Positions 25,541-45,822 of a stretch of DNA of 64,000 nucleotides are shown piece by piece. A program made the translations under genes and the position numbers. The notes below the pieces were generated by a model. It was not told the origin of the DNA. It worked only from the letters and a program-made list of their open reading frames with translations, and made no database searches. The DNA is from Candidatus Limnocylindrales bacterium (GTDB lineage: Bacteria > Chloroflexota > Limnocylindria > Limnocylindrales > CSP1-4), in assembly GCA_038248915.1 (NCBI GenBank), contig JBBRXB010000001.1:229097-293096 (forward strand), given 5' to 3'. Position 1 is the first letter of the stretch, and every line of letters starts with the position of its first letter.

Positions 25541-25572
25541 ACCCGGCCAACGAGACATCCAGAGGAGCCTCC

Positions 25573-26799: not shown

Positions 26800-26831
26800 C
26801 CGGCCCCCTTCCGACCTGTTGAGAGGAGCCC

Positions 26832-29945: not shown

Positions 29946-30035
29946 CCGCCGAGGCCAGTCCCATTCGGACGCGCGCTCCGGAGTCGGTTGGCGACGAATG
30001 ACGGCGACGGCCGGCGCGACTGCTATCGTGCCCGG

Positions 30036-30713: not shown

Positions 30714-31514
30714 CTAGCCCTTGAGGACCCGAACGACCTCGTCGTGGAGCAGGTCGTTCGTCGCTAGCGCCGTCCCGTTGTGGATCGACCGCACGCCGTG
30801 GATATCTGTCACCCGGCCGCCGGCCTCCTCGACGACGATCGATGGCGCGGCCAGGTCCCAACTGTTGGGGCCGACCTCGATCATCGCCTCGGCGGCCCCT
30901 TCGGCTACCAGCGCGTAACCCCAGAAGTCGCCGAACCCACGGTCGCGCCAGACCGTGCGGATCAGCGCGTCGAACCCCGGCGCCTCACCGCTGGCCCCGA
31001 TGTCGATCGGCGACGAGTAGAGGACCTGCGCGTCGGCGACGGCCGTCACCTTCGACACGCCGATCCGCCGTCGGATCCCCGCATCCGGCCCGACCGAGCC
31101 GATCGCCCAGCTGCCGCCACCCCGCCACGCGAGCCAGCGCTGGCCGAGGGCGGGCGCGCTCATGACCCCGACCACGATCTCGCCGTCTTCCTCGACCGCG
31201 AGGAGCGTGCCGAACAACGGCACGCCACGCATGAAGTTGTGCGTGCCGTCGATCGGGTCGATGTACCAGCGGATGCTGCCGTTGCCGGGTTGGGTGCCGT
31301 ACTCCTCGCCGACGAGCCCGTGGTCGGGGTAGGCGCGCGTGATCTGCGTGCGGATCTGGCGCTCGATGGCGGTGTCGGCCTGGGTAACGAACGTCCGGTC
31401 GGGCTTCGTCTCGATCACCAGGTCGCGCCGAAAATGCTCGAGGGCCATGGTGTCGGCGGCGTCGGCACAGACGAGAGCGAGGGTGAGCCACTCGTCGTAC
31501 CTGGGGTCGGTCAT
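30714..31514 (-). CDS. Inositol monophosphatase family protein (histidinol-phosphatase HisN-like)
   Basis: IMPase motifs are present: GEEYG, WYIDPIDGTHNF and DFWGY..VAEG. Its ATG overlaps the upstream stop (ATGA). Confidence 0.8.
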   Translation of the reverse strand: MTDPRYDEWLTLALVCADAADTMALEHFRRDLVIETKPDRTFVTQADTAIERQIRTQITRAYPDHGLVGEEYGTQPGNGSIRWYIDPIDGTHNFMRGVPLFGTLLAVEEDGEIVVGVMSAPALGQRWLAWRGGGSWAIGSVGPDAGIRRRIGVSKVTAVADAQVLYSSPIDIGASGEAPGFDALIRTVWRDRGFGDFWGYALVAEGAAEAMIEVGPNSWDLAAPSIVVEEAGGRVTDIHGVRSIHNGTALATNDLLHDEVVRVLKG

Positions 31515-33946
31515 GCGCGGATCCTCGCCCCGTCCGGGTCGAACAGCGGCTCGCGGGCGACCTCGAAGCCGATCCACTCGCCGAAGACCTCGACCTCGCC
31601 GCGGGTCCCGATCGCAGCGTCCGGGGGCAGGTACGCGTACGCGATCGAGCGCTCGACGGCGAAGCCATAGCCGCCCGACGTCACCCGACCGACGATCTCG
31701 CCACCGACGCAGACGGGCTCGTTGCCGAGACAGACGGAGCGCGGATCGTCGAGGACCAGACAGCGGAGGCGCTTGCGCGGACCGGCGGCCTTTGCAACCA
31801 CGAGCGCATCGCGGCCGATGAACTCGGGTTCCTTGTCAAGGGCCACCGCGAACCCGAGCCCAGCCTCGTACGGCGTCTCGTCCGGGGTGATGTCGCTGGA
31901 CCAGACGCGGTAGCCCTTCTCGATCCGGAGCGCGTCGATGGCGCGGTACCCGGCGGCGACCATGCCGTGCGCCCGGCCGGCCTCCCACAGCGTCCGCCAC
32001 AGCGCAAGACCGAAGTCTGTGTTGGCGTAGAGCTCCCAGCCGAGCTCCCCGACGTAGGTGACCCGCAGCGCGTAGACCGGCACGGACCCGACCGTGACGG
32101 CGCGTGCGGTGAGGTACGGGAAACCGGCATCCGAGACGTCGTCGCGCGTCAGCGGCGCGAGGATGTCGCGCGCCCGCGGGCCCCACAACGCGAAACACAC
32201 CCGGCTCGAGGTCAGGTCGTTGAGCAGCACGCTGCCGTCCTCGGGCAGGTTCCGGCGGAGCCAGCCAAGGTCGTGCTGGCCGACCGCGGTCCCGGTGATC
32301 ATCAGGAAGCGATCGGCGGTGACCCGGGTGATCGTCAGGTCGCACTCGATCCCGCCGCGGCGGTTGAGCAGTTGCGTGTAGACGATCCGCCCGACCGGGA
32401 CGTCCACGTCGTTGGCGCACATCTGTTGCAGGAAGGCCACGGCGCCCGGCCCGACGATCTCGATCTTGGCGAACGAGGTCTCGTCGAACAGACCGGCCGT
32501 CGTGCGAGTGGCCAGCGCCTCCGCGCCGATGGCCGGCGACCAGTGCTGGCCCGCCCAGCCGCGCGGCCGGAGTGCCTCGTCGCCGGCTGCGGCGTTCGAC
32601 TCGAACCAGTTCGGGCGCTCCCAGCCGGACTTCTCGCCAAAGACCGCGCCCAGACCGGCCAGGACGTCGTAGGTCGGCGAGGTGCGCAACGGGCGGCCGG
32701 CCTGGCGCTCCTCGTTCGGGTAGTGGATGTCGTAGTACGTCGCGTAGTTCTCGATCGAGCGGGCGAGGGTGTAGCCCTGCGACCGATATGCGGGCCCGAA
32801 CCGGCGGATGTCCATCTTCCAGAGGTCGAGCTCCGGCTCGCCATCGATGATCCACGACGCCATCTGACGTCCGATCCCGCCCGCCCCGGCGATGCCATGA
32901 GCCGAGAACCCGGCGGCGACGAAGAAACCACCGACCTCCGATTCACCGAGGATGAACTCGTTGTCCGGGGTGAACCCCTCCGGACCGTTGATGACCCGGC
33001 TGACGCCGGCGTCGGCCATGGCCGGGACGCGCCGGATGGCGCCCTCCATGATCGGCTGGAACCGGTCCATGTCGGGCGCCAGGAGCTTGCCGTTGAAGTC
33101 GATCGGGATGCCATCGAGCGACCACGGCGCCGGATCGCGTTCGTAGCCGCCCATGCACAGTCCACCGACCTCCTCGCGGAAATAGACCAAGTGGTCCGGA
33201 TCGCGGAGCTGGGGCAGGCCGGGGTGGACGCCCTCGATCGGCTCGGTGAAGAGGTACTGGTGGGCCATCGGGATGATCGGCACGTTGACCCCGACCATCC
33301 GGCCGATCTCCGGCGCGAACATCCCGCCGGCGTTGACCACGACGTCGGCCCGGATCTCCGAGCGCTCGCCCTGGTGCTCGACGGTGACGCCCGCCACGCG
33401 GCCGTGGTCCGTGCCGATCGCCACCACGCGCGTATACGGTCGGACCTTGGCGCCCCGCGCTCGGGCCCCGGCGGCGAGCGCGTTGGCGAGGCCGGACGGG
33501 TCGAGCCAGCCGTCGGTCGGCAGGTAGACAGCACCGAGGACGCCATCCGTCGACATCAGCGGAAAGAGCGCCTGGGCCTCGCCGGCCGTGATGAGTTCGA
33601 GCGGCAGCCCGAAGGTCTTGGCCCAGCCGGCCTGGCGTCGAAGCTCCTCGAACCGTTCCGGGCTCGACGCCAGCCGCAGGGAGCCGACCTCGTGCCAGGA
33701 CGGGTCGGTACCGGTCTCGGCCGCCAGGCGGCGGTACAGGTCCGAGCCGTACATCATCATCTTCGTGAGCGTGACCGAGCTCCGCAGCTGGCCGACGAGG
33801 CCGGCCGAATGGAAGGTCGAGCCCGAGGTCAGCTCCGCGCGGTCGACGAGGACGACGTCCGTCCAGCCGCGCTCGGTCAGGTGGTACGCGATCGACGTGC
33901 CGCCGACGCCGCCGCCGATGATGACCGCGCGAGCCTGTTCCGCCAT
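31511..33946 (-). CDS. FAD-dependent oxidoreductase fused to GcvT aminomethyltransferase-like domain (dimethylglycine/sarcosine dehydrogenase family), paralog 1
   Basis: The N-terminus has VIIGGGVGGTSIAYHL and TSGSTFHSAGLV. The C-terminal folate-binding GcvT domain shows FAKIEIVGPGA and YAGELGWELY. Confidence 0.88.
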   Translation of the reverse strand: MAEQARAVIIGGGVGGTSIAYHLTERGWTDVVLVDRAELTSGSTFHSAGLVGQLRSSVTLTKMMMYGSDLYRRLAAETGTDPSWHEVGSLRLASSPERFEELRRQAGWAKTFGLPLELITAGEAQALFPLMSTDGVLGAVYLPTDGWLDPSGLANALAAGARARGAKVRPYTRVVAIGTDHGRVAGVTVEHQGERSEIRADVVVNAGGMFAPEIGRMVGVNVPIIPMAHQYLFTEPIEGVHPGLPQLRDPDHLVYFREEVGGLCMGGYERDPAPWSLDGIPIDFNGKLLAPDMDRFQPIMEGAIRRVPAMADAGVSRVINGPEGFTPDNEFILGESEVGGFFVAAGFSAHGIAGAGGIGRQMASWIIDGEPELDLWKMDIRRFGPAYRSQGYTLARSIENYATYYDIHYPNEERQAGRPLRTSPTYDVLAGLGAVFGEKSGWERPNWFESNAAAGDEALRPRGWAGQHWSPAIGAEALATRTTAGLFDETSFAKIEIVGPGAVAFLQQMCANDVDVPVGRIVYTQLLNRRGGIECDLTITRVTADRFLMITGTAVGQHDLGWLRRNLPEDGSVLLNDLTSSRVCFALWGPRARDILAPLTRDDVSDAGFPYLTARAVTVGSVPVYALRVTYVGELGWELYANTDFGLALWRTLWEAGRAHGMVAAGYRAIDALRIEKGYRVWSSDITPDETPYEAGLGFAVALDKEPEFIGRDALVVAKAAGPRKRLRCLVLDDPRSVCLGNEPVCVGGEIVGRVTSGGYGFAVERSIAYAYLPPDAAIGTRGEVEVFGEWIGFEVAREPLFDPDGARIRA

Positions 33947-33961
33947 CGCCGTTGTGCGCTC

Positions 33962-33990
33962 CCCTGCCCTCCGACCGACGAGGGACAGGG
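33962..33990. terminator. GC hairpin after the NmrA-like gene
   Basis: ccctgccctc-N8-gagggacaggg forms a 10-bp stem with one bulge. It lies between the stop at 34001 and the next start at 33946. There is no U-tract. Confidence 0.3.
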
Positions 33991-34000
33991 TAGCGGGCCG

Positions 34001-34915
34001 TCAGGCCGGGTGATCGGCCAGCGCGCCTCGCGCGACGGGAAGCCGTTCCGCCACGACGTTCGCGAGCCGTGTAGCGGGCACGGAGGGGAATCGCCGCGCG
34101 CGATCGGTCGCGTCGGCGCTCATGTCGCGGGTATCCATGACCACGGCCGTCGCGATCTGGCCGGCCAGGATCGGCTTGATGGGGCGTAGGACCGCGGCGA
34201 GCATCCGCATCATGGGCAGCGGGACGTGGCTGACCGTTCCGGTGACGCCGGTGACTCGCTGGACCGTCGCGACGAAGGCCGCGAAGGTCAGGTTTTCGGG
34301 GCCGGCGACGTCGATGGTCGAGCCGCGGAGCGAGGGATCGGCGATGGCCACGTCCACGATGGCGGCGACGTCGGCCGCCGACACGAAGTTGATCGGGTTG
34401 TGACCGCGGCCGAAGATCCGCGTCCGGCCGGTCTCGACCAGCGGCCGGCCGACGAGCTCGAGCCAGGTCTCCTGGTAGGCGGTCGGGCGGATGATCGACC
34501 AGGCCAGGTTCGAGGCCTGGAGCCGGCGCTCGGTCTCGGCCTTGACCCGGAACAGCTCACTCGGGTGGTTCGGCGACGCCTGACCGATGGACAGCAGCGC
34601 GAAGTGGTCGACACCGGCCGCTTCCGCCGAGGCGATCAGGTTGGCATTGCCCTGCCCGTCGATCGCCCGAACCCCGCCGGCACCTGGCCCGCCAAAGCCC
34701 TGGATCGCCGAGACGACGGTCCCGACTCCGGCCATCGCTCGATCGATGGACGCTCGGTCCCGGACATCGCCGGTGACGAGCTCGACGCCGGCGGGCAAGC
34801 CATGGTCGCCACCGGACATCCCACGGGTCAGGACGCGCACCGTCTCGCCACGAACCAGCAACCTCGGAATCAGCAGCCGGCCGAGCGTGCCGGTCCCACC
34901 CGCCACGAGGATCAT
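34001..34915 (-). CDS. NAD(P)H-binding NmrA/SDR-family protein
   Basis: The Rossmann motif is in MILVAGGTGTLGRLLIPRLL. ATG 34915 overlaps the upstream stop (ATGA). Confidence 0.8.
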   Translation of the reverse strand: MILVAGGTGTLGRLLIPRLLVRGETVRVLTRGMSGGDHGLPAGVELVTGDVRDRASIDRAMAGVGTVVSAIQGFGGPGAGGVRAIDGQGNANLIASAEAAGVDHFALLSIGQASPNHPSELFRVKAETERRLQASNLAWSIIRPTAYQETWLELVGRPLVETGRTRIFGRGHNPINFVSAADVAAIVDVAIADPSLRGSTIDVAGPENLTFAAFVATVQRVTGVTGTVSHVPLPMMRMLAAVLRPIKPILAGQIATAVVMDTRDMSADATDRARRFPSVPATRLANVVAERLPVARGALADHPA

Positions 34916-35364
34916 CGCGGCACGGCCTGTCCGGTCGCGCCAGCGCCCGACACGATCCGCCGAACGGCGTCGTCGGGTCCGACACCGGCGACCTCCACCG
35001 GTTCGATGTAGAAACGGACCGAGACGGCCCGTGATGCCTCCAGCCGGAGGATCGTCACGCCGCGCATCCGGTGCGCCGAACCATCGCGCCGCGTACCGCT
35101 CCAATCCCATTCGGACCAGACGGTGTCGCCATCGACGACCGCGTCGAGCAGATCAGCGTGCAGGTCCGGGACGCCGGCAAAGATCTGCTCCCAGTTCCGG
35201 CGCACCTGGTCGGCTCCTCGGAAGGTACGCTGCGGATGCGCCGGCGTCTCGCTGAGAACGTTCGGGTCGAACACCTCCACGAGGGCGTCCAGGTCGTGAT
35301 CGTTCATCGCATCGCGGAGTCGGTGCACCACCGCGATCCCGGGTTCCACTGCCTGCACGTCCAT
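34912..35364 (-). CDS. SnoaL-like / NTF2-fold protein
   Basis: ATG 35364 has GGAGGAG 5 nt upstream. The product (IAVVHRLRDAMNDHDLDALVEVFDPNV..., 150 aa) has an NTF2-like pattern. Confidence 0.65.
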   Translation of the reverse strand: MDVQAVEPGIAVVHRLRDAMNDHDLDALVEVFDPNVLSETPAHPQRTFRGADQVRRNWEQIFAGVPDLHADLLDAVVDGDTVWSEWDWSGTRRDGSAHRMRGVTILRLEASRAVSVRFYIEPVEVAGVGPDDAVRRIVSGAGATGQAVPR

Positions 35365-35423: not shown

Positions 35424-36071
35424 ATGAACGATCAAACCGATGTCAAGCGAGCCTACGAATCGCCTCTTCGCAAGGCGCAGGCGGCGACCACGAGGCGCGC
35501 GGTGATCGACGCCGCCGCGACGCTGTTCATCGATCGCGGCTACGTCGCGACGTCGCTCGATTCGATCGCGGAGGCGGCGGGCGTCAGCCGGGCGACGGTC
35601 ACGTCGATCGGCGGCAAGAAGGCGCTGCTCAAGACGGCCTACGACGTGGCCCTCGTCGGTGACGGCGAGCCGATCCCCTTCCCGCTTCGGCCGGCCTCGC
35701 TCGCGGTTCGAGCCGAGCCTGACCCGATTCGGTTCGTGGTCGGCTACGCTGGGCTGGTCACCGACATCGATCGCCGGCTCGCCGCGGTCTACGAAGCCGT
35801 ACGGGGCGCAGCCAGCGCCGACCCGGAGGTGCGCGAGGTCTTCGAGGCGATCGGGCGGGAGCGTTCGATCGGCGCGCGCCACGTCGTCGACGACCTCCTG
35901 GCGAAGGGCGCGCGGCTGCGGGACGGTCTGGACGCCGAGGCGGCGGCCGACATCCTGTGGGTCCTCATCGACCCGGGCCTCTTCCACCTCCTCGTCCATC
36001 GTCGTGGTTGGACGCCGGAGCGCTTCGACGCCTGGCTGGCCGATTCGATCCAGCGCCAGCTGCTGGCATGA
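35424..36071 (+). CDS. TetR-family transcriptional regulator
   Basis: The N-terminal HTH reads TRRAVIDAAATLFIDRGYVATSLDSIAEAAGVSRATV. It is divergent from the SnoaL-like gene. TATACT lies 9 nt upstream of the ATG. Confidence 0.88.
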   Translation: MNDQTDVKRAYESPLRKAQAATTRRAVIDAAATLFIDRGYVATSLDSIAEAAGVSRATVTSIGGKKALLKTAYDVALVGDGEPIPFPLRPASLAVRAEPDPIRFVVGYAGLVTDIDRRLAAVYEAVRGAASADPEVREVFEAIGRERSIGARHVVDDLLAKGARLRDGLDAEAAADILWVLIDPGLFHLLVHRRGWTPERFDAWLADSIQRQLLA

Positions 36072-36075
36072 CCCG

Positions 36076-36984
36076 GTGACGGCGACGCCCTCGATCGAGC
36101 AGGTCATCGCGGCGATCCCGGAATGGGCCGGGCGAACGGTCACGGCCGAGCGGATCCCGGCCGGGCTGACCAACACGAACTACCGGGTCGAGGTCGACGG
36201 CCTGCCGCGGTTCGTGCGGATCCCCGGCGCCGGGACCGACCTTCTGGCCGTCGATCGCGGCAACGAACTGCACAATACCCGGGTGGCGGCCGAGTCCGGC
36301 GTCGCGCCCCGTGTCCTCCATGCGCTTCCGGAGTGGGACGTGTTCGTGCTCGAGTGGCTCGAGGCTCGGACGCTGTCGGGCGAGGCGTTGCGGGCGCCCG
36401 GGATGCCGGCGCGGATCGCGAACGCACTCCGACGCCTCCATTCTGGCCCGCGCTTCCGTGACGACTTCGACATGGTCCGGCTGTCCGAGCGCTATCTCGC
36501 CTTCGTCGACGAGCGCGACATCGCCATCCCGGCCGGCTATCGGGAGCACCTGGGCCAGATCCCGCGCATCGAGGCGGCGCTGGCCGCGCACCCACTGGCG
36601 ACCGTCCCGTGCCACAACGACCTGCTCGCCGACAACTACCTCGACGACGGCGGGCGGCTGTGGATCGTCGACTGGGAATACAGCGGCAACGGCGATCCCG
36701 CCTTCGAACTCGGCAACACGGCGCAGGAGCTCGAGTACGACGACGACCAGGTCCGCGAGCTGTGCGCCGCGTACTTCGGGGAAGCCTCCCCTGCCCTCCT
36801 GGCCCGGATGCGGCTCCAGATGATCATGTCCGACGTCGGCTGGACGCTGTGGGCCGCCATCCAGGCGCGGATCTCCACGATCGACTACGACTTCACCGCG
36901 TGGGCCGAGGAACGGTGGGCGCGGGCGGCCGCCATGCTCGACGGCCCCGACTTCGGGGGTTGGCTGCAAGTCGGGCGGGTCTGA
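36076..36984 (+). CDS. Phosphotransferase, APH/choline-ethanolamine-kinase-like family, paralog 1
   Basis: GTG 36076 lies 5 nt after the TetR stop. Motifs are GLTNTNYRV, the Brenner-type catalytic loop PCHNDLLADNYL and IVDWEYSGNGDPAFELGN. Confidence 0.85.
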   Translation: MTATPSIEQVIAAIPEWAGRTVTAERIPAGLTNTNYRVEVDGLPRFVRIPGAGTDLLAVDRGNELHNTRVAAESGVAPRVLHALPEWDVFVLEWLEARTLSGEALRAPGMPARIANALRRLHSGPRFRDDFDMVRLSERYLAFVDERDIAIPAGYREHLGQIPRIEAALAAHPLATVPCHNDLLADNYLDDGGRLWIVDWEYSGNGDPAFELGNTAQELEYDDDQVRELCAAYFGEASPALLARMRLQMIMSDVGWTLWAAIQARISTIDYDFTAWAEERWARAAAMLDGPDFGGWLQVGRV

Positions 36985-37055
36985 TCGCGATCGGCAACTC
37001 GGTGGCGAACCTCTCAGGACTCGTTGCGCCATCCTTGGGTTCGAGAGGCATTCGA

Positions 37056-39488
37056 TCAGCTCCGCATCCGCGAACCGGTCGGGTCGAACAGGACGTCCGG
37101 GGCCACAGAAGCCAGCGCGCGATGATCGAATACGTCGACTTCGGCGGACTGACCTTCCGCCACATCCGACGGCAGGTAGACGTAGCCGATCGTGCGCTGG
37201 ACGGTCGGACAGTACGCGACGCTCCTGAGGCGACCGACGACCTCGCCGTCGAGCCGGATCGCTTCGCCTCCGTACACGGGCAGGTAGTCGGTATCGCCGA
37301 TGAGGACGGTCCGGAGTCGCCGACCTGGCCCGCTGGGCGCGGCCGTGCGGGCCGCCACGGTGGCGTCGCGCCCGATGAACGCTCCCTTGCCGGGCCGGAC
37401 GAACGCCCCGAGCCCGGCTTCGTCGGGCGTCTCGAGCATCGTCATGTCGGTGTTGAAATACCGATAGCCCTTCTCCATGCGGAGCGCATCCAGGGCTCGA
37501 TAGCCGAACGGCTCGAGACCGGCGTCGCTCCCCGCGTCGCGGAGCGCATCCCAGACCGGGACCGCCCACTCGGCATCCGTCGACAGCTCCCAGCCGAGCT
37601 CGCCGGCGTAGCTGATCCGGGCGGCTAGGACGGGTGCGTGGACGACGCGGATGGTGCGGGCCTGGCGAAGCGGGATCGCCCCGTTGGTCACGTTATCGTC
37701 GGAGGCCCCCGCCAGGATCTCGCGCGCCAGCGGTCCCCACAGCCCGATCATCACCAGATCTCCGCTGACATCGCGCAGGGCCACGTCCTCGCCGGCGACG
37801 GCATGCCGGAGCCAGGCGAGGTCCGAGGCGACGAACCCGGCCCCGGTCACGACCCGGAACCGATCGGCGGCGAGGCGGGTGATCGTGACGTCGGCCACCA
37901 TCCCACCCCGATCGTCGAGGAATGGCGTGTAGATGACGCTGCCGACCGGCCGATCCACGTCGCCGGCGGCGACCCGCTGGAGCAGGCCGAGCGCCCCGGG
38001 CCCGTCGACCGCGATCTTGCCGAACGAGCTCAGATCGATGATCCCGGCGCGCTCGCGGACAGCGCGAGCCTCTGCGCAGACCCGCTCGAACCACGGCGGC
38101 TTGGTCCAGCCGTATCCCGCCTGATCCCGACCTGCGCGGCGCCACGGCCGGTCGGGGTCGTGATTGTCGGCCCGTTCCCAGCCGGCCTTCGTCCCGAACA
38201 CGGCACCGGCCTCCTGGAGCCGGCCATGCAGCGGAGACAGCCGCCGCGGCCGCCCAGAGACATCCGCGTCGAACGGGTAGCGCAACCGGTAGTAGTCCGA
38301 GTAGGTCTCGCGCGCCAGCCCAGCCGCAAACCCCGGGTCGCGGTAGGTGTCACCGAACCGCCAGGCCCGGTACGGCCCGATATCCACACCCGGGTCGCCA
38401 GCCGTGATCCAGCCGGCCATGGCCTGCCCGATCCCGCCTCCCCCACCGAACCCGTTGAGCGACAGTCCCGCGGCCACCCAGTAGCCACGCACCCCGGGGA
38501 GCGGCCCGAGCAGCGGGTTCGCATCGGGCGTCATCGCGTCCGGATGGCAGACCAACCGGATCGCCTCGGCGTCGGCCAGGAACGGGAACCGTCGGATGGC
38601 GCCCTGCATCAGCGGCTCGAACCGCTCGTAGTCGGGTGGCAACGACTGCGCGGCGTGCTCCCAGGGCACCCCATCCTCCCAGCGCGAGACCGGATCGAGC
38701 TCGTAGCCGCCGAAGACCATCCCGCCGTGCTCGCTCTTGCCGTACACGAGATTGTCCGGGTCGCGGAAACACGGCATGTCGCGCGGCAGCTCGGACCCGG
38801 GGACGGCCTTGAGGGCGATGTGCTGGTGGTCGACCGGCGTCGAGGGGATGAACGCCCCGACCATCGCGGCGACCTGCGGGGCCCAGATCCCGGCGGCGTT
38901 GACGACGATCTCCGTGTCGATCCGGCCCGCGTCGGTCAGGACGGTCGTGACCGCGTGACCGGCCGACAGTTCGAAGCCAGTCACGCGGACGCCCGTCCGG
39001 ATGCGAACTCCGAGCGCCCGCGCCGCATCGGCCACGGCGTGGGTCGCGCCATGTGGGTCGAGGTGACCGTCGCCGGCCAGGTGGACCGCTCCGAACAGCG
39101 ACGCCGGCGAGATGGCGGGCATCAGCCCGAGCGCCTCGTTCGGCCCGATCACCTCCGCCTCGAGTCCGATGCCCCGCGCTCGACTCGCCGTCCGCTCGAG
39201 CTCCCGAAGCTGCTCGGGGCTCGATGCCAGGCGCAGGCTGCCCACGGTCTCGAAGGCGCCGAGGCGTCGAAAGAGCTCGATGCTGTAGCGCCGGAAGCCC
39301 ATCATCGTCGACGACGGGTTGAAGGCGGTGACCAAACCGGCCGCCTGGCACGTCGAGCCCGCCGTCAGCTGCGCCTTCTCGACGAGCAGGACGTCCGTCC
39401 AGCCGGCGAGCGCCAGGTGGTAGGCCACGCTGCAGCCGGTGATCCCGCCACCGATGACGACGACGCGAGCCTGATCGGTCAATGACAC
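37056..39488 (-). CDS. FAD-dependent oxidoreductase fused to GcvT-like domain (dimethylglycine/sarcosine dehydrogenase family), paralog 2
   Basis: Matching segments are VVIGGGITGCSVAYHL, TAGSTCQAAGLV, FGKIAVDGPGA and YAGELGWEL. The start is GTG 39488 (or TTG 39482) and overlaps the upstream gene's stop. Confidence 0.88.
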   Translation of the reverse strand: MSLTDQARVVVIGGGITGCSVAYHLALAGWTDVLLVEKAQLTAGSTCQAAGLVTAFNPSSTMMGFRRYSIELFRRLGAFETVGSLRLASSPEQLRELERTASRARGIGLEAEVIGPNEALGLMPAISPASLFGAVHLAGDGHLDPHGATHAVADAARALGVRIRTGVRVTGFELSAGHAVTTVLTDAGRIDTEIVVNAAGIWAPQVAAMVGAFIPSTPVDHQHIALKAVPGSELPRDMPCFRDPDNLVYGKSEHGGMVFGGYELDPVSRWEDGVPWEHAAQSLPPDYERFEPLMQGAIRRFPFLADAEAIRLVCHPDAMTPDANPLLGPLPGVRGYWVAAGLSLNGFGGGGGIGQAMAGWITAGDPGVDIGPYRAWRFGDTYRDPGFAAGLARETYSDYYRLRYPFDADVSGRPRRLSPLHGRLQEAGAVFGTKAGWERADNHDPDRPWRRAGRDQAGYGWTKPPWFERVCAEARAVRERAGIIDLSSFGKIAVDGPGALGLLQRVAAGDVDRPVGSVIYTPFLDDRGGMVADVTITRLAADRFRVVTGAGFVASDLAWLRHAVAGEDVALRDVSGDLVMIGLWGPLAREILAGASDDNVTNGAIPLRQARTIRVVHAPVLAARISYAGELGWELSTDAEWAVPVWDALRDAGSDAGLEPFGYRALDALRMEKGYRYFNTDMTMLETPDEAGLGAFVRPGKGAFIGRDATVAARTAAPSGPGRRLRTVLIGDTDYLPVYGGEAIRLDGEVVGRLRSVAYCPTVQRTIGYVYLPSDVAEGQSAEVDVFDHRALASVAPDVLFDPTGSRMRS

Positions 39489-40459
39489 GCGGCGCTCCCG
39501 GGATCGGTGACATCGCCGGAGGTTGGCAGGAAGGCCCAGTCGAACGATGCGCGGTGCAGGTCGAGGCGGATGATGCCGTGACTGACCGCCAGTCGCAACT
39601 GGCTGTTGGCCCTGGGCACGGCGAAGGTCCGCAGGTCGGCACCACCGGTGCCCACGACGAACTCGCGGATGCCGTGTGCCGGATCCGGCCTGGCGTCCGG
39701 GTCCTGCGGCGCGAAACGTTCGTAATCGTGATCGTGGCCGTTGATCACGACATCCGCGCCAGCGGCGTACAGCGCCTGCCAGAACGGCGCCACTTCCGCG
39801 TCGTTGCCGTGGAACCCGGAGCTGAACCGCGGGTGATGCCAGATGGCGAGCGCACAGGTCGCCGTGGACGCCCGGAAATCGGCGGTCAGCCATCTCCCCT
39901 GCGGCGAGGCCGCACCGCACCCGCCGACGTTCGAGCAGCCCGAGTCGAGGACGATGACGTGCCACGCCCCGAGCTCGTACGAGTACCAGCTCACGCCGTG
40001 TGGCGCGGCCGCCCGCCCGAAGTAGCCGAGGTAGCCGGCGGCACCCTTGGTCTCCCGATCGTGATTGCCGGCGGCCGGCCTTGTCCGATCGCGGAACGCA
40101 CCCCATGTCGGGTCGTAGCAGTCATGGAATTGGCCGGGCGACCCGTTGGCATAGGCGTTGTCGCCGGCCGTGAAGACCGCACCCGGCATCGACGCGACCA
40201 TCGCGGCCGTCTGGGAATCGCCATCGAGATGGCAGTCCGCGATGTCGCCCGCTCCCATCAGGACGGCGTCGGGCACCGCGGACGGGGTCGAGCGGGCCGG
40301 GACCGCGGACGGCGTCGAGCGGGCCGGACTGGACCCGCCGTCTCGCTGGATGAGGCTGGCCATCCCGAGCAGGAGGGCGAGCGTGGCAGCGAACCCCAGG
40401 ACGCCCAGGATCAGGGTCCTCGCGGACGAGATCGGATGCGGCCCGGGCTCGGTGGTCAC
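39479..40459 (-). CDS. Secreted/membrane-anchored calcineurin-like metallophosphoesterase
   Basis: An N-terminal TM/signal segment and a duplicated PARSTPSAV linker precede the metallophosphoesterase motifs GDIADC, GDNAY, GNHD and GHDHDYER. Confidence 0.85.
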   Translation of the reverse strand: MTTEPGPHPISSARTLILGVLGFAATLALLLGMASLIQRDGGSSPARSTPSAVPARSTPSAVPDAVLMGAGDIADCHLDGDSQTAAMVASMPGAVFTAGDNAYANGSPGQFHDCYDPTWGAFRDRTRPAAGNHDRETKGAAGYLGYFGRAAAPHGVSWYSYELGAWHVIVLDSGCSNVGGCGAASPQGRWLTADFRASTATCALAIWHHPRFSSGFHGNDAEVAPFWQALYAAGADVVINGHDHDYERFAPQDPDARPDPAHGIREFVVGTGGADLRTFAVPRANSQLRLAVSHGIIRLDLHRASFDWAFLPTSGDVTDPGSAACH

Positions 40460-40509
40460 CGTCCGAGCGTATCGGACCGCGCCGCTCGGTGCCGCCTAGT
40501 GAAGTTCAC

Positions 40510-40932
40510 TCAGTCGCTGGCGAGCGCCTCGTCGCTCCCGGAGATCCGTTCGACGGCGATCCGGACCGTCCAGCCCGCCGGCGGGTTCGGCAAGTCGGGA
40601 AAGACCACGTCCGGGCTGACGTATGTGTACGCGAGCCGCTGGAGGGTCTCGGGGGCCCCGCCCTCCACCACCCGGGCGCGACCGTGCAGGACGATGTAGC
40701 CGGGCAGACCCATCGGGCCGAGGCGGCCCGTCTCGAAGGAGATCGCCATCCGAGGGTCGCGGCGCAAGTTGACCAGCTTCGCCTGGTCGAACATCGTGCC
40801 GATGACGATCTCCTCGCCATCCAGCCCGATCCAGGCCATCGAGATCTGCGGCCGACCATCCGGAGCCAACGTGACGACGTGGGCGATCGGGCCGGTCTCG
40901 ATCGCTGTCCGTACGGCGGCTGGGATGTCCAT
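40510..40932 (-). CDS. Pyridoxamine 5'-phosphate oxidase-like (PPOX class, probably F420-dependent) protein
   Basis: ATG 40932 has AAGGAGG 5 nt upstream. The product shows HVVTLAPDGRPQISMAWIGLDGEEIVIGT and RDPRMAISF, a split-barrel PPOX pattern. Confidence 0.75.
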   Translation of the reverse strand: MDIPAAVRTAIETGPIAHVVTLAPDGRPQISMAWIGLDGEEIVIGTMFDQAKLVNLRRDPRMAISFETGRLGPMGLPGYIVLHGRARVVEGGAPETLQRLAYTYVSPDVVFPDLPNPPAGWTVRIAVERISGSDEALASD

Positions 40933-41002
40933 CGAGTCCTCCTTGGTCACCGATCACCACCTAGCCCCATCGGCCGGTCCGCGTTCGTGACTGTCGTCCA
41001 GC

Positions 41003-41944
41003 CTACGCCTCGGCGAGGTCCGCGAGGGCGCCCTCGAAGCGCGCGTCGGCCGCGTTGGCCAGCAGCCGGCGGAAGTTCCCGTCGGCATAGGCGACGAAGT
41101 CCACGTCAAGGTTGCTGACGCCCTGCTGCAGAACGCCCCACATCGCCTCGCGGAAGTCGGATACGACCCGCATCAGGGTCAGCCGGGCGAGCCGATCCGG
41201 CCGGACGGAGCCGTCGTACGCAGCCAACAACAGCGCGTCTTCGTCCGGCGTCAGCTCGTGGTTGATGCTGAAGTTGCCGAGGTCGAAGAACGGGTCGCCC
41301 ATCCCGGCGTATTCCCAGTCGATGATCCGGATCCGCGTGCCGTCGTCGATGAAGTTCGCATTCAGCAGGTCGTTGTGGCACGGTCGCAGCTCGATCGGGG
41401 CGGCCAGGAACGCGCCCTCGATCCGCCGCCCCACGGCCGACGCGAGGTCGTACTGGGGCGGGATGTTGACCCCGCGGGAGATCGCCAGGGCTCGATACGC
41501 CTCCACGATCCGCAGTGGCACGAACAGCCCCGGGATGGCCGGGCCATCGTGGATCCGCCGGAGCGAATCCGCGACTCGCCGGAGCGTGTCCGGTCGATGG
41601 ACGGCCTCGTCCGATACCGGGGACCCGACGATGAACCGGGTCACGAGGTAGCCCTCGGGCCGGATGAACGCGGTCACCTCGGGTCCGACGCCCACCCCGG
41701 CGGCCGCGACTGTCGCGGCGTGCTCGACCTCACGCGAGATGCCCAGCAGGTGCGTGTCGTTGCCGGCCAGCCGGATGACCCAGCGGTCATCCGTGCCCGA
41801 GGCATCGATCCGGAAGTTCCGGTTGGTGATCCCGCCGGACAGCGCGGTGAGGGTCAGCCGACGCCCGGCGATCTCCGGGACCTTCTGCAAGGCCCCGACG
41901 AGGTCGTCGTACAAGGGGCCCCGCAGGATCGGATCATCGGTCAC
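41003..41944 (-). CDS. Phosphotransferase, APH/choline-ethanolamine-kinase-like family, paralog 2
   Basis: Motifs are GGITNRNFRI, PCHNDLLNANFI and IIDWEYAGMGDPFFDLGN. The GTG start abuts the permease stop. Confidence 0.85.
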   Translation of the reverse strand: MTDDPILRGPLYDDLVGALQKVPEIAGRRLTLTALSGGITNRNFRIDASGTDDRWVIRLAGNDTHLLGISREVEHAATVAAAGVGVGPEVTAFIRPEGYLVTRFIVGSPVSDEAVHRPDTLRRVADSLRRIHDGPAIPGLFVPLRIVEAYRALAISRGVNIPPQYDLASAVGRRIEGAFLAAPIELRPCHNDLLNANFIDDGTRIRIIDWEYAGMGDPFFDLGNFSINHELTPDEDALLLAAYDGSVRPDRLARLTLMRVVSDFREAMWGVLQQGVSNLDVDFVAYADGNFRRLLANAADARFEGALADLAEA

Positions 41945-43581
41945 TACCCGATGACGGTTTCGCCAGTGGCTGCATCGGCCTCCAGCTTCTCGCGAGCGAT
42001 CCGTCCTCGTTCTGCGGCGAGGTAGTAGATGAGTCCGGCGATCAAAACCACGCCCATGATCAGCTCGAAGATCGGGATGGCTGGCAGGGAGACATCGACG
42101 CCAAGGACCTGCGTCGACGCGAGGATCGGATTCGACAGGTCGCGCAGGCCGACGGCCGTCCCGTCAGGCAGCGGGTAGGATGCCGTGCCCAGTGAGCCGA
42201 AGGTATCGGTCTGCCACAGCGCGAAGTTGATGATCATCAGGCCGCCCCAGACGAGCGCCAGGACGTTGATGATCGTCCCCCAGCTTCCGAGTCTGAACCA
42301 GGCCCCCTTCTGGGGCCACCCGCGCCGGCGGGCGACGAGCACGCCAAGATTGCACAGGAAGTAGCTGGTGTAGATCATCCCGGTCGCGGCCACGGCCAGG
42401 ACCGCGGCGGAACTGGTCAGCAGGAATGGGATGGCCGCCAGGATGCCCACGGCGACGGCGGCGTTGGCGGGCGTGTGGAACCGCTCGCTGACATGCCCCC
42501 ACACGCCACCGAACGGCAGGCGGCGGTCCCTGCCCATCGAGAACATCAGCCGCGTGGTCGCGCCCTGGATCGCCATGGTGCAGACGTACACGGCCGCAAG
42601 GATGACGAGCAGGTAGACCTTGCCGAAATCACCCATGTTGGCGTTGATCGTGTCGCCGATCGGGTTCGCTCCGCCGACGCCCCAGGCGAACTGCTGCGCG
42701 CTGAGGATCTGCGCCGGCACGTCCTTGAACGACAGGATGATCGCGAGCAGGAACAGGGCGCCGGTCGCTCCCGCGAGCCAGATCGCGGACAGGACGCCGC
42801 GTGGCGCCTGCCGACTGGCATCCAGCGTTTCCTCGCCGAATGTGCCCGCCGTGTCAAAGCCATAGACGACGAAGAGGCTCATGAACATCCCGACGAGGAA
42901 GATCGTCGGGAAACCGCCGGTCGACGTGACATTCGGCGCCGTCTCCGTGATCACCGACAGAGGTTGGTGATTGAAGAAGATCAGCAGGATCAGGGCGAAC
43001 ACCACCAGTCCGAGGATCTCCGCGCCGACGCCGAGGTTGTTGATGATCGCCAGAACCCGGACCCCGAAGGCATTGATGATCGTCGTCGTGATGAGGGTGA
43101 TGAGGGCCAGGAAGACGCCCATGTTGAAGGCGGAGATCGGCGACGCCGACGTCAGATCGGTGCCGGTGATGCTCGAGATGACCAGGGGCACGGTGATCGC
43201 GACGGCCGTCGTCGTGAGCACGCCGGCCCAGAAATAGATCCAGCCGGTGTACCAGCCGAGCGTCTTGTTCGACAGCCGCTTGGACCATTGGTAGATCGAT
43301 CCAGCGACCGGGAAGTGACTCGACAGCTCGGCGAAGTTGAGTGCGACGAAGGTCTGACCGAGGATCACGAGCGGCCACGACCAGAAAAAGAACGGACCCG
43401 ACACGGCGAGGCCTACTGCGATCAGCGTGAAGGTGCCGGTCGACACGCTGATATAGCTGAAGGCGACGGCGAAGTTGGACATGAACCCGAGGCTGCGCCG
43501 CAGCTCCGGCTTGATCCCCAACGACTCAAGGTGGGCGTCGTCCTGCGCGGCCACATCCTGCGCGCTAGCTGGTCCCGCCAC
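41944..43581 (-). CDS. APC-superfamily amino acid/amine permease
   Basis: The product has about 12 TM segments and an APC pattern (GFMSNFAVAFSYISVSTG..., FPVAGSIYQW). GTG 43581 has GGAGGAGGAG 6 nt upstream, so it is preferred over ATG 43677. Confidence 0.85.
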   Translation of the reverse strand: MAGPASAQDVAAQDDAHLESLGIKPELRRSLGFMSNFAVAFSYISVSTGTFTLIAVGLAVSGPFFFWSWPLVILGQTFVALNFAELSSHFPVAGSIYQWSKRLSNKTLGWYTGWIYFWAGVLTTTAVAITVPLVISSITGTDLTSASPISAFNMGVFLALITLITTTIINAFGVRVLAIINNLGVGAEILGLVVFALILLIFFNHQPLSVITETAPNVTSTGGFPTIFLVGMFMSLFVVYGFDTAGTFGEETLDASRQAPRGVLSAIWLAGATGALFLLAIILSFKDVPAQILSAQQFAWGVGGANPIGDTINANMGDFGKVYLLVILAAVYVCTMAIQGATTRLMFSMGRDRRLPFGGVWGHVSERFHTPANAAVAVGILAAIPFLLTSSAAVLAVAATGMIYTSYFLCNLGVLVARRRGWPQKGAWFRLGSWGTIINVLALVWGGLMIINFALWQTDTFGSLGTASYPLPDGTAVGLRDLSNPILASTQVLGVDVSLPAIPIFELIMGVVLIAGLIYYLAAERGRIAREKLEADAATGETVIG

Positions 43582-43802: not shown

Positions 43803-45209
43803 TCAGCCCGCCGTGACGGCCTCGCGCAGCCCATCCGGGATCGGCCGGTGCCATTCGACCGGGTGGACGTAGCGGTCGACCATGGCGCGGCTGTCGTTGA
43901 CCCGCAGCTCCGTGAACAGGTAGGCGATCTTGCGACGCTGGGCGGCCAGGATCTCGTCCTTCGTGTCGAGATCCCAGAGCTTGCGCTTGAACGGCCCGAG
44001 GGCCTTCTTGCGCGTCGTGTAGACGAACTGCTGGTCGGTCTGGTCGGCCTTCCGCTCGTTGATGGCGTTGCCGAAGCACCACCCCTCGATCTCACGATGG
44101 AGCGACGCCGGGAAGGCCGGATGCTCGTACAGCGCGTTCTGGAATCCCGTCGCCAGGTGGATCTCGGCCGTCTCGACGGCCGGGAAGCGGTGGAACAGCT
44201 CGTCCGGCAGGGTCGATGCACCGTGCTGCACGGCACCGGCGAGGCCATACTCGCGGGCCACGACACCAAGCTCGCGCAGGACCTCGAAGTCGAGCTTGAC
44301 CTCCGCCACGCCGCCATCAGGCAGTGGCACGCCGCCATGCGACGTGCCGGTCTGGACGCTGACCTTGGAGATCCCCTGCGCGCCGGTCGCGCGTGCCTCG
44401 AGCTCGCGGCGGTAGCCGTCGAGGTAGGCGCGCAGCTCCGCGACGGTCGAATTCTGCGTCCCGACCTCGCCGATCTCGCCACCGACGCTGATCGTCACCC
44501 CATCCGGCTCGAGCGTCCGGATCAGGGCGGTGAGCTCTGCGGCTCGCCGGTAATTCTCGCCCTGCTCCCCGTCGACATTCGGTTTCGACAGGTCGACCAG
44601 CGTTGACGAGTCGATGTCGATGTTCCGATAGCCGGCCTCGATCGCGAGCCGGCACGCGCGCCGGATCTCCTCGGTCATCGCCTCCGGATCGGCCAGGTAC
44701 TTCTTGGCGTTGAACTGGTAGTGGTCGCCCTGGATGAAGACCGGGCCCTGCCAGCCGGCGGCGATGGCGCCGGCCAGGACCGAGGTCGCGTAGTCGATCG
44801 GACGCTGGAACGTATAGGTCTGTTCGCTCCGGGCGAGTTCGAGGATGACAGCCCCGACACCGGCCGCCGCCGCAGCGTCATAGACCGTCCGGGCCATGTC
44901 GAACGTCTGCGTCCGCAGGTTGATGGCAGGGACCGTGAACCCGGTGACCTCACCGCGGGCGCGCGCCTGATACAACCCCTGGATGCTGGCCGACCGCGCA
45001 CCGAGCGCCTGGCTGGCCTCCCAGACGAGCCATTGGGCGGCGGCGGTCGTCGCCTCGTCGTCGCTGAACGCCGCGGTCCAGGCCAGGTCGCGGATGCCGT
45101 CGCCACGGAACGCCGCATCATCGTCGATGACGATCTGTTCGCCGTCGAGGTGGGCGCGACCGGTCAGGATCGCGAGGAGGTCGGTCGGGGAGGTCGCAAC
45201 GTGGGGCAT
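43803..45209 (-). CDS. Class II (metal-dependent) fructose/tagatose-bisphosphate aldolase family protein, long divergent form
   Basis: The F_bP_aldolase layout is visible: FTVPAINLRT, VILELARSE, IQGDHYQ, GGEIGEVG, QTGTSHGG and VQHGAST. The protein is 468 aa and has a C-terminal extension of about 100 aa. Confidence 0.75.
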   Translation of the reverse strand: MPHVATSPTDLLAILTGRAHLDGEQIVIDDDAAFRGDGIRDLAWTAAFSDDEATTAAAQWLVWEASQALGARSASIQGLYQARARGEVTGFTVPAINLRTQTFDMARTVYDAAAAAGVGAVILELARSEQTYTFQRPIDYATSVLAGAIAAGWQGPVFIQGDHYQFNAKKYLADPEAMTEEIRRACRLAIEAGYRNIDIDSSTLVDLSKPNVDGEQGENYRRAAELTALIRTLEPDGVTISVGGEIGEVGTQNSTVAELRAYLDGYRRELEARATGAQGISKVSVQTGTSHGGVPLPDGGVAEVKLDFEVLRELGVVAREYGLAGAVQHGASTLPDELFHRFPAVETAEIHLATGFQNALYEHPAFPASLHREIEGWCFGNAINERKADQTDQQFVYTTRKKALGPFKRKLWDLDTKDEILAAQRRKIAYLFTELRVNDSRAMVDRYVHPVEWHRPIPDGLREAVTAG

Positions 45210-45278
45210 CGGGGTCGGTCTCCTGTCGGTGGCGTCATCACCATGGTAGCGACCGACCCGTGGCATCGGGAAACCAGG

Positions 45279-45767
45279 CTAGAAGGTCGGCTTGACCACC
45301 ATCAGAAAGACGATGACGACGATCAGCAGCCCTAGGAACATCCCGCCGCGCTGGACCTTCTTCACCTGCGCGGCGATGGCGGGCGGCGGCGGTCCCGGAG
45401 GGGTTCCGGGCGGTGGCGGCGTCGAGGTCATCTCGATGAGGTGATGCAGGGCCGTGCGCTGGATCGTCAGGCCGTACGACACCAGGATCAAGTACAGCAC
45501 GATGGCGATGGCCAGCCACGCCTTCGTCATGACGTCGACCTTGCCACTCACGATCAGGAGCACGCCGGTGATGCCCTGGATGATGGCCAGCGGATAGACG
45601 ACCCCGCGCCCGATGGCCGCCACCTGGCGCGAGCTGAAGTTCGCGTGCTGCGGCTCCTTGCCCGCCATCCCGCCCATGATCGAATAGGCGAACGTCGGCC
45701 CGAACGCGATGATCGCTCCCATCACGTGGAGGAACAGGACGAACGGAAAGAACTGGCCGATATCCAA
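45279..45767 (-). CDS. DUF2269-like integral membrane protein
   Basis: The product has four hydrophobic segments. A Pro-rich loop (TPPPPGTPPGPPPP) precedes the last TM segment. TTG start. Confidence 0.6.
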   Translation of the reverse strand: MDIGQFFPFVLFLHVMGAIIAFGPTFAYSIMGGMAGKEPQHANFSSRQVAAIGRGVVYPLAIIQGITGVLLIVSGKVDVMTKAWLAIAIVLYLILVSYGLTIQRTALHHLIEMTSTPPPPGTPPGPPPPAIAAQVKKVQRGGMFLGLLIVVIVFLMVVKPTF

Positions 45768-45822
45768 GACACCACCCCTAGAGCGATCGGCGGACTTGGC
45801 ACCGACGCGCGAAGGATAGGCC

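Follow-up and report, generated by a model that had tools for sequence, protein, structure and literature searches.

A conserved kinase-oxidase gene pair in Candidatus Limnocylindrales and a possible route for phosphorylation-linked N-demethylation of amino alcohols

Results

The locus described here lies in a 64,000-nucleotide stretch of DNA from a Candidatus Limnocylindrales bacterium (GenBank assembly GCA_038248915.1, contig JBBRXB010000001.1, positions 229,097 to 293,096; the whole stretch is referred to as the window) and encodes two choline/ethanolamine-kinase-like phosphotransferases and two fusions of an FAD oxidase with GcvT domains that resemble dimethylglycine dehydrogenase (DMGDH). 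The G+C content of the window is ~70%, and the nearest relatives, among the matches listed, are metagenome-assembled genomes (MAGs) of Candidatus Limnocylindria (Chloroflexota) from soil and sediment, whose kinase homologs are 84-90% identical. Genes were called by a GC3-based open reading frame (ORF) screen, and the window proteins were then scanned with Pfam and NCBIfam; every gene listed in an initial annotation, which had been made from the sequence alone, was recovered in its place and in its family.

The first gene of the minus-strand operon encodes an APC-superfamily permease resembling amino acid/choline transporters (41944-43581; Pfam AA_permease_2, E 8.6e-35). Its GTG start codon at 43581 is preceded by a strong ribosome-binding site, GGGAGGAGGAG, and its stop codon shares one base with the start codon of kinase 1 in the sequence TAGTG. 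Kinase 1 (41003-41944, minus strand; Pfam Choline_kinase/APH, E ~3e-18) belongs to a type designated kin1. The array extends to oxidase B (37056-39488, minus strand; 810 amino acids; Pfam DAO/GCV_T/GCV_T_C), whose GTG start is overlapped by 10 nt by the end of a phosphoesterase gene. Convergent to the array run a TetR-family regulator gene (35424-36071, plus strand; Pfam TetR_N) and, 4 nt behind its stop codon, kinase 2 (36076-36984, plus strand; Pfam APH/Choline_kinase), a paralog of the kin2 type. Oxidase A, a DAO + FAO_M + GcvT fusion of 811 amino acids (31511-33946, minus strand; domains assigned by Pfam), overlaps through ATGA with the gene of a HisN-like phosphatase of the IMPase family (30714-31514, minus strand; Pfam Inositol_P, E 9e-45). 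The tight TetR/kinase 2 junction and the start/stop coupling of the second oxidase to the phosphatase had both been proposed before and were read directly from the sequence, and the two paralogous pairs were confirmed at 37% (kinases) and 43% (oxidases) identity. The proposal that the whole permease-to-oxidase B array has minimal or overlapping junctions holds for permease/kinase 1 and phosphoesterase/oxidase B, but not for the two looser junctions in between, with ~70 nt separating kinase 1 from a PPOX-like gene and ~50 nt separating the latter from the phosphoesterase.

To place the locus among its relatives, GTDB genomes, one per species, were scanned with an alignment of both kinases as the seed, and at least 591 relatives were confirmed. 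From these, 80 loci with flanks of up to 10 kb per side were kept. All window proteins were compared with them by tblastn, and the locus ORFs, called heuristically in MAGs, were clustered. The loci came from Limnocylindria, Gaiellaceae and other Actinomycetes, Dormibacterota, Ktedonobacteraceae and Solirubrobacteraceae. In 68 of the 80 loci a DMGDH-like gene was present no more than 4.1 kb from the kinase, and in 45 the distance was at most 600 bp; in 10 of the 12 loci without it the contig ends within ~2.6 kb of the kinase. Kinase 1 orthologs (46-87% identical) adjoin a DMGDH-like gene, and oxidase A orthologs (54-90% identical) were found in 68 loci. In the distant loci only oxidases of the A type occur; identity to the window proteins is 46-58% there for the kinases and 54-67% for the oxidases. 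Together with cultured Alphaproteobacteria, described below, the pair spans four phyla, the others being Chloroflexota, Actinomycetota and Dormibacterota, and its adjacency survives rearrangements in the 68 loci and in Alphaproteobacteria. The conserved core is therefore a choline/ethanolamine-kinase-like kinase with a DMGDH-like enzyme of ~810 amino acids that joins FAD and GcvT domains. Co-conservation in relatives had been set beforehand as the test of a functional link, and it was found: the pair, often with the IMPase, is kept across all four phyla.

The usual gene order in Limnocylindria, exemplified by loci L015, L033 and L038, is permease, kinase 1, in some cases the esterase, oxidase A and IMPase, with convergent aminotransferase and Pot-type importer genes. 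In the window and ~8 relatives an extra unit of oxidase B and kinase 2 stands between kinase 1 and oxidase A. Synteny across loci marks this module as an insertion and oxidase A as the ancestral partner of kinase 1, which had been grouped with oxidase B in a single array. An IMPase gene directly follows the oxidase in 17 Limnocylindria loci, in two more distant soil MAG loci, L042 and L043 (one from Dormibacterota and one labelled Chloroflexi), and on two Ruegeria plasmids. Of 81 related loci, 44 (including 20 distant ones) have a permease of the same cluster. The aminotransferase gene lies alongside in Limnocylindria and also in Dormibacterota-type loci, there at 41-44% identity, and the Pot importer is co-located in both groups. 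The esterase was found in 14 close and in no distant loci, and among the loci examined a PPOX homolog occurs in one other locus only (L002) and TetR, SnoaL and NmrA genes only in the very closest relatives, the SnoaL-NmrA pair also in L001. The locus is thus a conserved core with lineage-specific additions (PPOX, anchored phosphoesterase, TetR, SnoaL and NmrA), rather than the seven-part unit of the initial annotation, in which PPOX, secreted phosphoesterase and TetR stood on a par with the pair. Nor is it an island, as it had been called: its G+C fraction of 0.66-0.71 equals that of the flanks, its neighbours are housekeeping genes, no integrase was found in the window, the sole confirmed tRNA lies at 16.2 kb and the core is syntenic across Limnocylindria MAGs. 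On the grounds of composition and synteny a horizontally acquired genomic island was rejected.

Some further observations were made in these loci. In Actinomycetes-type loci (L040, L046, L052, L053, L058 and L074) the kinase-oxidase pair repeatedly has a UPF0047/YjbQ-family gene nearby, and an AzlC-family gene recurs in another subset. In L001, a 2.2-Mb contig with an 87%-identical kinase, the permease, oxidase B and oxidase A are each split into two or three ORFs, a pattern more like frameshift errors from long-read assembly than like genuine pseudogenes.

When annotated plasmids and chromids were searched at the protein level, the pair turned up in cultured Alphaproteobacteria, namely Shinella, Ruegeria (two strains), Rhizobium rosettiformans, Salipiger, Rhodobacteraceae M382, Alisedimentitalea and Labrenzia, frequently with a stop/start overlap between its members. 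Ruegeria sp. AD91A and THAF33 have the order DeoR, OpuAC-type binding protein, ProV-like ATPase, permease, kinase, FAD oxidoreductase of 814 amino acids and IMPase-family protein; the succession kinase-oxidase-IMPase is common to Ruegeria and the window, which belong to two phyla. An ABC importer precedes a kinase that overlaps the oxidase by 4 nt in Shinella, and in R. rosettiformans the importer is followed by kinase, oxidase, oxidase, kinase and NmrA. The order in Salipiger, Rhodobacteraceae M382 and Alisedimentitalea is DeoR, oxidase, kinase, and in Labrenzia the pair stands alone. The R. rosettiformans operon holds both kinase types, as does the window, so that two-module loci exist in both Chloroflexota and Alphaproteobacteria. 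In Nonomuraea an oxidase 60% identical to oxidase A is divergent from a kin2-type kinase. The alphaproteobacterial loci carry an OpuAC-type (betaine/choline) binding protein and a regulator of the DeoR/GlpR family. OpuAC proteins bind N-methyl-ammonium solutes, and DeoR/GlpR regulators typically sense phosphorylated metabolites.

On two roseobacter plasmids (L082, 4714-5679; L093, 2624-3589) an agmatinase-family ureohydrolase gene with a LysR gene lies divergent to a DeoR-oxidase-kinase unit of the kin2 type, and a urea-carboxylase-associated/amidohydrolase cluster lies downstream; this neighbourhood may hint at a guanidino precursor. Two rhizobial loci (L090, 7980-10457, on the S. meliloti pSym replicon; L091, 7980-10457, on an Aminobacter plasmid) contain DeoR and an oxidase of the same clade but no kinase. 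Both kinase-less oxidases adjoin the 2-aminoethylphosphonate (AEP) genes phnW/phnA/phnY, that of S. meliloti also xsc/pta (taurine), and in Aminobacter a dihydrofolate-reductase-family gene is adjacent. They are candidate demethylases of N-methyl-AEP or N-methyltaurine, as judged from their neighbours, and their 2-aminoethyl substrates would be anionic already.

In both window kinases and in their relatives the Brenner motif (HNDLxxxN; PCHNDLLxxN) and the DWEY metal site are invariant, and the Choline_kinase/APH Pfam scores of the kinases lie above the gathering cut-off. The APH/choline-kinase fold, with intact Brenner motif and DWEY, is shared with choline/ethanolamine kinases such as S. pneumoniae LicA (4R77) and Mesorhizobium 3DXQ, a protein of unassigned function; kinase 1 matched 3dxq with E 5.5e-40 and LicA 4r77 with E 3.6e-18. 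Members of the family phosphorylate compounds of the hydroxyethyl-ammonium type, such as choline, ethanolamine and thiamine. The nearest curated model is that of the guanitoxin kinase GntI (NCBIfam NF041256, an equivalog), on which kinase 1 scores 302.6 bits and kinase 2 scores 193.4 bits, both below the cut-off of 357. A cyclic guanidine with an N,N-dimethylamino group is the substrate of GntI. Both LicA and GntI serve biosynthesis and have no linked demethylase, whereas the window kinase would represent the first intracellular step of an apparently catabolic operon. In a neighbour-joining tree the kinases form two old clades, each of which adjoins an oxidase in its own loci. The kin1 clade comprises window kinase 1, the kinases of all distant soil loci and of Ruegeria, and the kinA proteins of Shinella and R. 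rosettiformans; the kin2 clade comprises window kinase 2 and the kinases of Nonomuraea, R. rosettiformans (kinB), Salipiger and M382, all adjoining DMGDH-like genes.

Both oxidases matched the Pfam families DAO, (FAO_M), GCV_T and GCV_T_C with E-values from 1e-63 to 6e-78. The same architecture is found in dimethylglycine oxidase (DMGO) of A. globiformis (1PJ5) and in DMGDH (rat, 4PAB; human, 5L46), and the alignments run end to end: the best PDB match of oxidase A was A. globiformis DMGO (1pj5; E 3e-160, full length), and oxidase B matched rat DMGDH (4pab) with E 1e-131, likewise over the full length. With DMGO and rat DMGDH as references, whose sequences were taken from the PDB alignments, the placement against characterized enzymes that the initial annotation had recommended was carried out as neighbour-joining trees. 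The assignment to the DMGDH/DMGO family stood; however, the kinase-linked oxidases formed a clade apart from both references, and oxidase A is a distant relative of DMGO and DMGDH despite its full-length match. Neither DMGO nor DMGDH is partnered with a kinase or a phosphatase.

We compared residues in 58 oxidases of this clade (50 of the A type from soil, six kinase-linked ones from Alphaproteobacteria and the two kinase-less rhizobial ones). Oxidase A and all 58 members have the flavinylation residue His48, the catalytic His225 and Tyr259 and the folate-site Asp552 (DMGO numbering). In addition, all 58 share a signature that consists of an invariant H-[SA]-A-G-L-V-G-Q-L-R segment together with W386, R391 and R406 (DMGO numbering), and GQLR, W386, R391 and R406 are missing from DMGO, rat DMGDH and oxidase B. 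In window oxidase A the signature arginines are R55, R381 and R396. The first signature arginine lies nine residues after the flavin-linked histidine, in the segment that contains the position of human H109, a residue described as lining the substrate tunnel (PMC5082570). By their aligned positions, the extra arginines would fit a dianionic phosphate or phosphonate ligand.

Oxidase B keeps the equivalents of H225, Y259 and D552, has glutamine at position 48 and lacks the arginines of the oxidase A clade. The two oxidases are therefore not equivalent. Among the loci examined, oxidase B forms a Limnocylindria-specific branch that is always found beside kin2. In its orthologs from L002, L009, L026, L034 and L035 glutamine likewise replaces the FAD-linked histidine, usually after a cysteine, and this holds throughout the clade; to judge from this replacement, the flavin of oxidase B may be bound non-covalently or linked in another way.

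The phosphatases and the proposed uptake and downstream functions were analyzed in the same manner. On the HisN model TIGR02067 (cut-off 275.15 bits) the window IMPase scored 246.6 bits and the Ruegeria IMPase 247 bits, both below the cut-off, and no core protein reaches the curated cut-off of a characterized equivalog, be it GntI or HisN. HisN hydrolyzes a beta-amino-alcohol phosphate. The metallophosphoesterase, an accessory gene of Limnocylindria (39479-40459, minus strand; Pfam Metallophos, E 1.6e-5), has purple-acid-phosphatase-type motifs (GDxxY, GNHD and GHDHDYER). As anticipated in the initial annotation, it is signal-anchored: an N-terminal hydrophobic, transmembrane segment at residues ~14-36 is followed by a linker rich in Pro, Ser and Thr. 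This linker contains, at residues ~40-62, a perfect tandem repeat (ARSTPSAVP-ARSTPSAVP) between the anchor and the purple-acid-phosphatase-like domain. The NCBIfam matches of the permease, to ureacarb_perm (294 bits) and to the ACT family 2A0304 (163 bits), are both below the cut-off. A class-III aminotransferase (28617-29945, plus strand; Pfam Aminotran_3), convergent on the IMPase gene, is GabT/PuuE-like, its best PDB and NCBIfam matches being 4-aminobutyrate aminotransferases, and probably serves downstream amine catabolism; the role of an AGXT2-type phospho-lyase is not supported. The four adjoining genes of a PotABCD-like ABC importer (ATPase, binding protein and two permeases; 24233-28606, plus strand; Pfam, NCBIfam) possibly encode a linked uptake system.

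The aminotransferase and importer genes, like the SnoaL-like and NmrA-like genes, had been absent from the initial annotation. The accessory SnoaL-like protein has an NTF2 fold (34912-35364, minus strand; Pfam SnoaL_2, E 5e-22); its ATG at 35364 is preceded by the ribosome-binding site GGAGGAGCGAC, and the end of its gene overlaps through ATGA with the start of that of the NmrA-like NAD(P)-binding protein, a further accessory (34001-34915, minus strand; Pfam NAD_binding_10/NmrA). The 54-nt spacer between the NmrA and oxidase A genes (33947-34000, minus strand) contains a G+C-rich inverted repeat, CCCTGTCCCTC ... GAGGGCAGGG, directly before the ribosome-binding site, which could be an attenuator or an RNA-processing site. 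The PNPOx/F420-PPOX split-barrel protein, a lineage-specific accessory (40510-40932, minus strand; Pfam PNPOx_N), scores 79.7 bits on TIGR03618 (cut-off 79.05), and the TetR protein has a weak BetI-type similarity in its C-terminal part (TetR_C_6, 25.1 bits, below the cut-off of 27). No palindromes or TetR operator shared by the SnoaL/TetR divergent region and the region upstream of the permease were found. An ORF for 238 amino acids between the aminotransferase and IMPase genes (29988-30704, plus strand) has a high GC3 and a C-terminal hydrophobic segment and matches no family; among the loci examined a homolog was seen in L071 only.

Upstream of the permease (43803-49418, minus strand) lie genes for a MoxR-like AAA protein, a VWA protein (with an Rv0959-type domain in a relative), a DUF2269 protein and a 487-amino-acid protein with a weak class-II aldolase match. 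This block is present in nearly all Limnocylindria loci and absent from the distant ones. The spacer between the aldolase-like gene and the permease, 89-1380 nt among relatives, is not conserved, and a search for a leader or riboswitch upstream of the permease gave no Rfam match anywhere in the locus. A tRNA-Thr(GGT) of 86 nt predicted by ARAGORN (34444-34529, plus strand) lies inside the NmrA gene, is unconfirmed by Rfam and is probably a false positive, and an ORF family designated c18 is an antisense artefact within the kinase gene. The sequencing runs that contain the sequence are DNA metagenomes from sediment, rhizosphere and soil, with no RNA runs among them.

Discussion

The gene families, catalytic motifs, translational coupling and cross-phylum co-conservation described above are observed; from them we infer the order of the reaction steps, a phosphorylated substrate and its chemical identity. 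We tentatively propose, at a confidence that falls just short of an even chance, that the locus encodes a kinase-coupled, tetrahydrofolate (THF)-linked route for the oxidative N-demethylation of N-methylated beta-amino alcohols, of which N-methyl- and N,N-dimethyl-ethanolamine are the likeliest. The amine would enter through the APC permease and possibly through the Pot-type ABC system, after the anchored acid-phosphatase-like esterase may have released it from extracellular phosphoesters. Kinase 1 or 2 would then phosphorylate its hydroxyl with ATP and so provide a cationic or neutral molecule with an anionic group that imitates the dimethylglycine carboxylate. The DMGDH-like flavoenzymes would oxidize the N-methyl C-N bond, with the GcvT domain passing the one-carbon unit to THF, and the HisN-like phosphatase would strip the phosphate to leave an ethanolamine-type primary amine. 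This amine would probably go to the GabT-like aminotransferase in the Limnocylindria lineage and to a gamma-glutamylation pathway of the GlnA4 type in the Actinomycetes relatives.

The initial annotation had already suggested that a methylated amino alcohol undergoes phosphorylation-linked N-demethylation. The concept is upheld by the co-conservation of the genes and by the fact that no equivalog cut-off is reached; the quaternary examples given for the demethylated species, choline and phosphocholine, are not. DMGDH-type enzymes oxidize the C-N bond of secondary and tertiary amines, a flavin amine-oxidase chemistry that needs a lone pair. Because quaternary amines have none, choline and phosphocholine were replaced as candidate substrates by N-methyl- and N,N-dimethyl-amino alcohols.

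Several lines of evidence bear on the substrate and on the order of the steps. In ~8-12 Actinomycetes MAG loci the pair is surrounded by GS-like, Peptidase_C26, ALDH, SDR and amino-acid-type permease genes, and the published gene set of the GlnA4 ethanolamine pathway consists of GS-like, C26 amidohydrolase, ALDH, SDR and permease genes (PMC6529630, PMC10132767). The dimethylamino group of the GntI substrate and the OpuAC binding protein point to an N-methyl ammonium substrate, and the DeoR/GlpR regulator points to a phosphorylated effector. Taken with the GlnA4-type context, the HisN-like phosphatase and the kinase-less relatives with presumably anionic substrates, they favor the order phosphorylation, demethylation, dephosphorylation. 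There may also be a chemical reason to mask the hydroxyl with phosphate: the iminium formed by DMGDH is proposed to be trapped as a labile lactone by the carboxylate of the substrate (PMC5082570), and a free hydroxyl would form a stable oxazolidine instead. With slightly more reserve than for the route itself, we suggest as a conceivable generalization a phosphate-handle strategy in at least four phyla, in which O-phosphorylation would be obligatory, a dedicated clade of the DMGDH family would demethylate onto THF and a HisN-like phosphatase would remove the phosphate. This strategy may extend to N-methyl-AEP or N-methyltaurine demethylases in rhizobia.

The protein families concerned (DMGDH/DMGO, choline-kinase/APH and IMPase) are known, whereas the kinase-oxidase module is undescribed in the literature that we searched, most subscription journals being outside its reach; within it no paper was found on a kinase/DMGDH-like pathway, on the demethylation of a phospho-base or, under its presumed locus tags, on the S. 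meliloti homolog, in agreement with the initial annotation, which knew of no described pathway with this gene set. The nearest functional analogies are the amino-alcohol kinase/phospho-lyase pathways and the PbfB/PbfC/PbfD enzymes, and both differ in the bond cleaved and in the partner enzymes. In the catabolism of ethanolamine and 1-amino-2-propanol through O-phosphate phospho-lyases, and of hydroxylysine through hydroxylysine kinase and AGXT2L2, phosphorylation by an APH-family kinase is the committing step. The window locus likewise has an APH-family kinase, but its class-III pyridoxal phosphate enzyme is GabT/PuuE-like and not phospho-lyase-like, and while phospho-lyase pathways eliminate the phospho-ester, here it would be demethylated and then hydrolyzed. 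PbfB, PbfC and PbfD are DAO-family flavoenzymes that oxidize N-methyl-2-aminoethylphosphonate (PMC10590968), an isostere of the phospho-ester proposed for the window oxidases. They have no GcvT domain and no kinase partner, and they yield phosphonoacetaldehyde, which means that the 2-aminoethyl C-N bond is oxidized and not the N-methyl bond.

Two other systems share parts of the module. MABO of A. nicotinovorans pAO1, the gamma-N-methylaminobutyrate oxidase, is a THF-dependent demethylase of the DMGDH family that acts on an N-methyl amine other than a glycine derivative. Compared by description only, MABO indicates that the family can take other anionic N-methyl substrates, and it is not known to have a kinase partner. 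The GlnA4-type clusters (S. coelicolor SCO1610-1615; C. salexigens, Phaeobacter) share their composition with the Actinomycetes MAG loci; the published ones lack the pair of kinase and DMGDH-like enzyme, and the window lacks gamma-glutamylation genes.

The same sequence of phosphorylation, demethylation and dephosphorylation could act on another N-methylated hydroxylated amine, such as a polyamine- or GABA-related compound, a guanidino alcohol or an amino-cyclitol. We consider this unlikely, although it has enough in its favor to be taken seriously. In Dormibacterota-type loci the pair is accompanied by an aminobutyraldehyde dehydrogenase (735 bits, above the cut-off) as well as by a Pot-type importer and a GabT-like aminotransferase, an agmatinase gene is divergent to the module on the two roseobacter plasmids, the permease resembles one associated with urea/guanidine carboxylases, and kinase 1 is similar to GntI, which acts on a cyclic guanidine. 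On the other hand, there is no obvious abundant natural compound of such a kind, the Actinomycetes context matches the ethanolamine cluster gene for gene, and the OpuAC binding protein and the choline-kinase-type fold favor small N-methyl-ammonium alcohols.

Less probable still is that the oxidases are ordinary dimethylglycine/sarcosine dehydrogenases that serve the breakdown of choline or glycine betaine and the kinases are choline/ethanolamine kinases in a parallel branch of salvage or surface decoration, the two being linked by the choline pool and a common regulator. The full-length matches to DMGO and DMGDH (E 1e-131 to 3e-160) with all catalytic residues kept would agree with this, as would the likeness of oxidase B to rat DMGDH at the positions that distinguish the oxidase A clade, the weak BetI-type match of the TetR protein and the betaine/choline-type transporters of the alphaproteobacterial loci. 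However, no canonical gene of the choline-betaine-glycine route was found among the scanned window genes (14-56 kb); choline dehydrogenase/oxidase, betaine demethylase and sarcosine oxidase are absent from the window and the related loci, and betaine-aldehyde dehydrogenase is absent in the Limnocylindria lineage. Moreover, unrelated branches would hardly account for stop/start overlaps of kinase, oxidase and phosphatase genes across four phyla, the clade of the kinase-linked oxidases is separate and has an invariant signature of its own, and a kinase that makes phosphocholine would be counter-productive in catabolism directed to betaine. That the genes are neighbors with no joint pathway, or that the kinase marks a guanitoxin-like natural-product cluster, is very improbable, and the guanitoxin-like cluster was rejected. 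The GntI score of kinase 1 (302.6 bits) and the variation of many accessory genes among lineages speak for one or the other, but the score lies under the cut-off, no other guanitoxin-type (gnt) enzyme families occur in the window, the surroundings are transporters and catabolic enzymes, and the pair has stayed adjacent through rearrangements both in Alphaproteobacteria and in 68 of the 80 loci.

Several points weigh against the proposed demethylation of phosphorylated N-methyl-ethanolamines. The substrate is read from gene context alone, and the signature arginines are placed relative to the active site by alignment alone. Oxidase B, which lacks them, may act on a different, perhaps a carboxylate, substrate. 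Most loci of Actinomycetes and Dormibacterota have no phosphatase gene, though gamma-glutamylation needs a free hydroxyl. Should the phosphate remain in place from one demethylation to the next, the proposal does not account for the need for two kinases. The GabT-like aminotransferase, the Pot importer and the aminobutyraldehyde dehydrogenase of Dormibacterota could equally form an independent putrescine/GABA module. Finally, the heuristic ORF calls in the MAG loci are a weak point, and the trees of kinases and oxidases are of the neighbour-joining type and thus distance-based only.

Phospholipid head groups and the anaerobic demethylation of choline are sources of N-methyl- and N,N-dimethyl-ethanolamine, and to our knowledge no aerobic catabolic genes have been assigned to these amines. 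The kinase-oxidase module is found in abundant uncultured soil lineages (Limnocylindria, Gaiellales and Dormibacterota) as well as in Alphaproteobacteria from marine and rhizosphere habitats that are tractable, and the cultured carriers Ruegeria, Shinella and Rhizobium rosettiformans MAE2-X make the proposed pathway directly testable. If the proposal is correct, the DMGDH family would gain a new substrate class, and the bracketing of an oxidation by a kinase and a phosphatase would be explained by the need for an anionic handle and for a hydroxyl that is kept from trapping the iminium. The module would then represent a new source of methylene-THF and a new route by which amines derived from lipid head groups and choline enter one-carbon and nitrogen metabolism, and it would provide a function for many proteins now annotated as 'FAD-dependent oxidoreductase' and 'phosphotransferase'.

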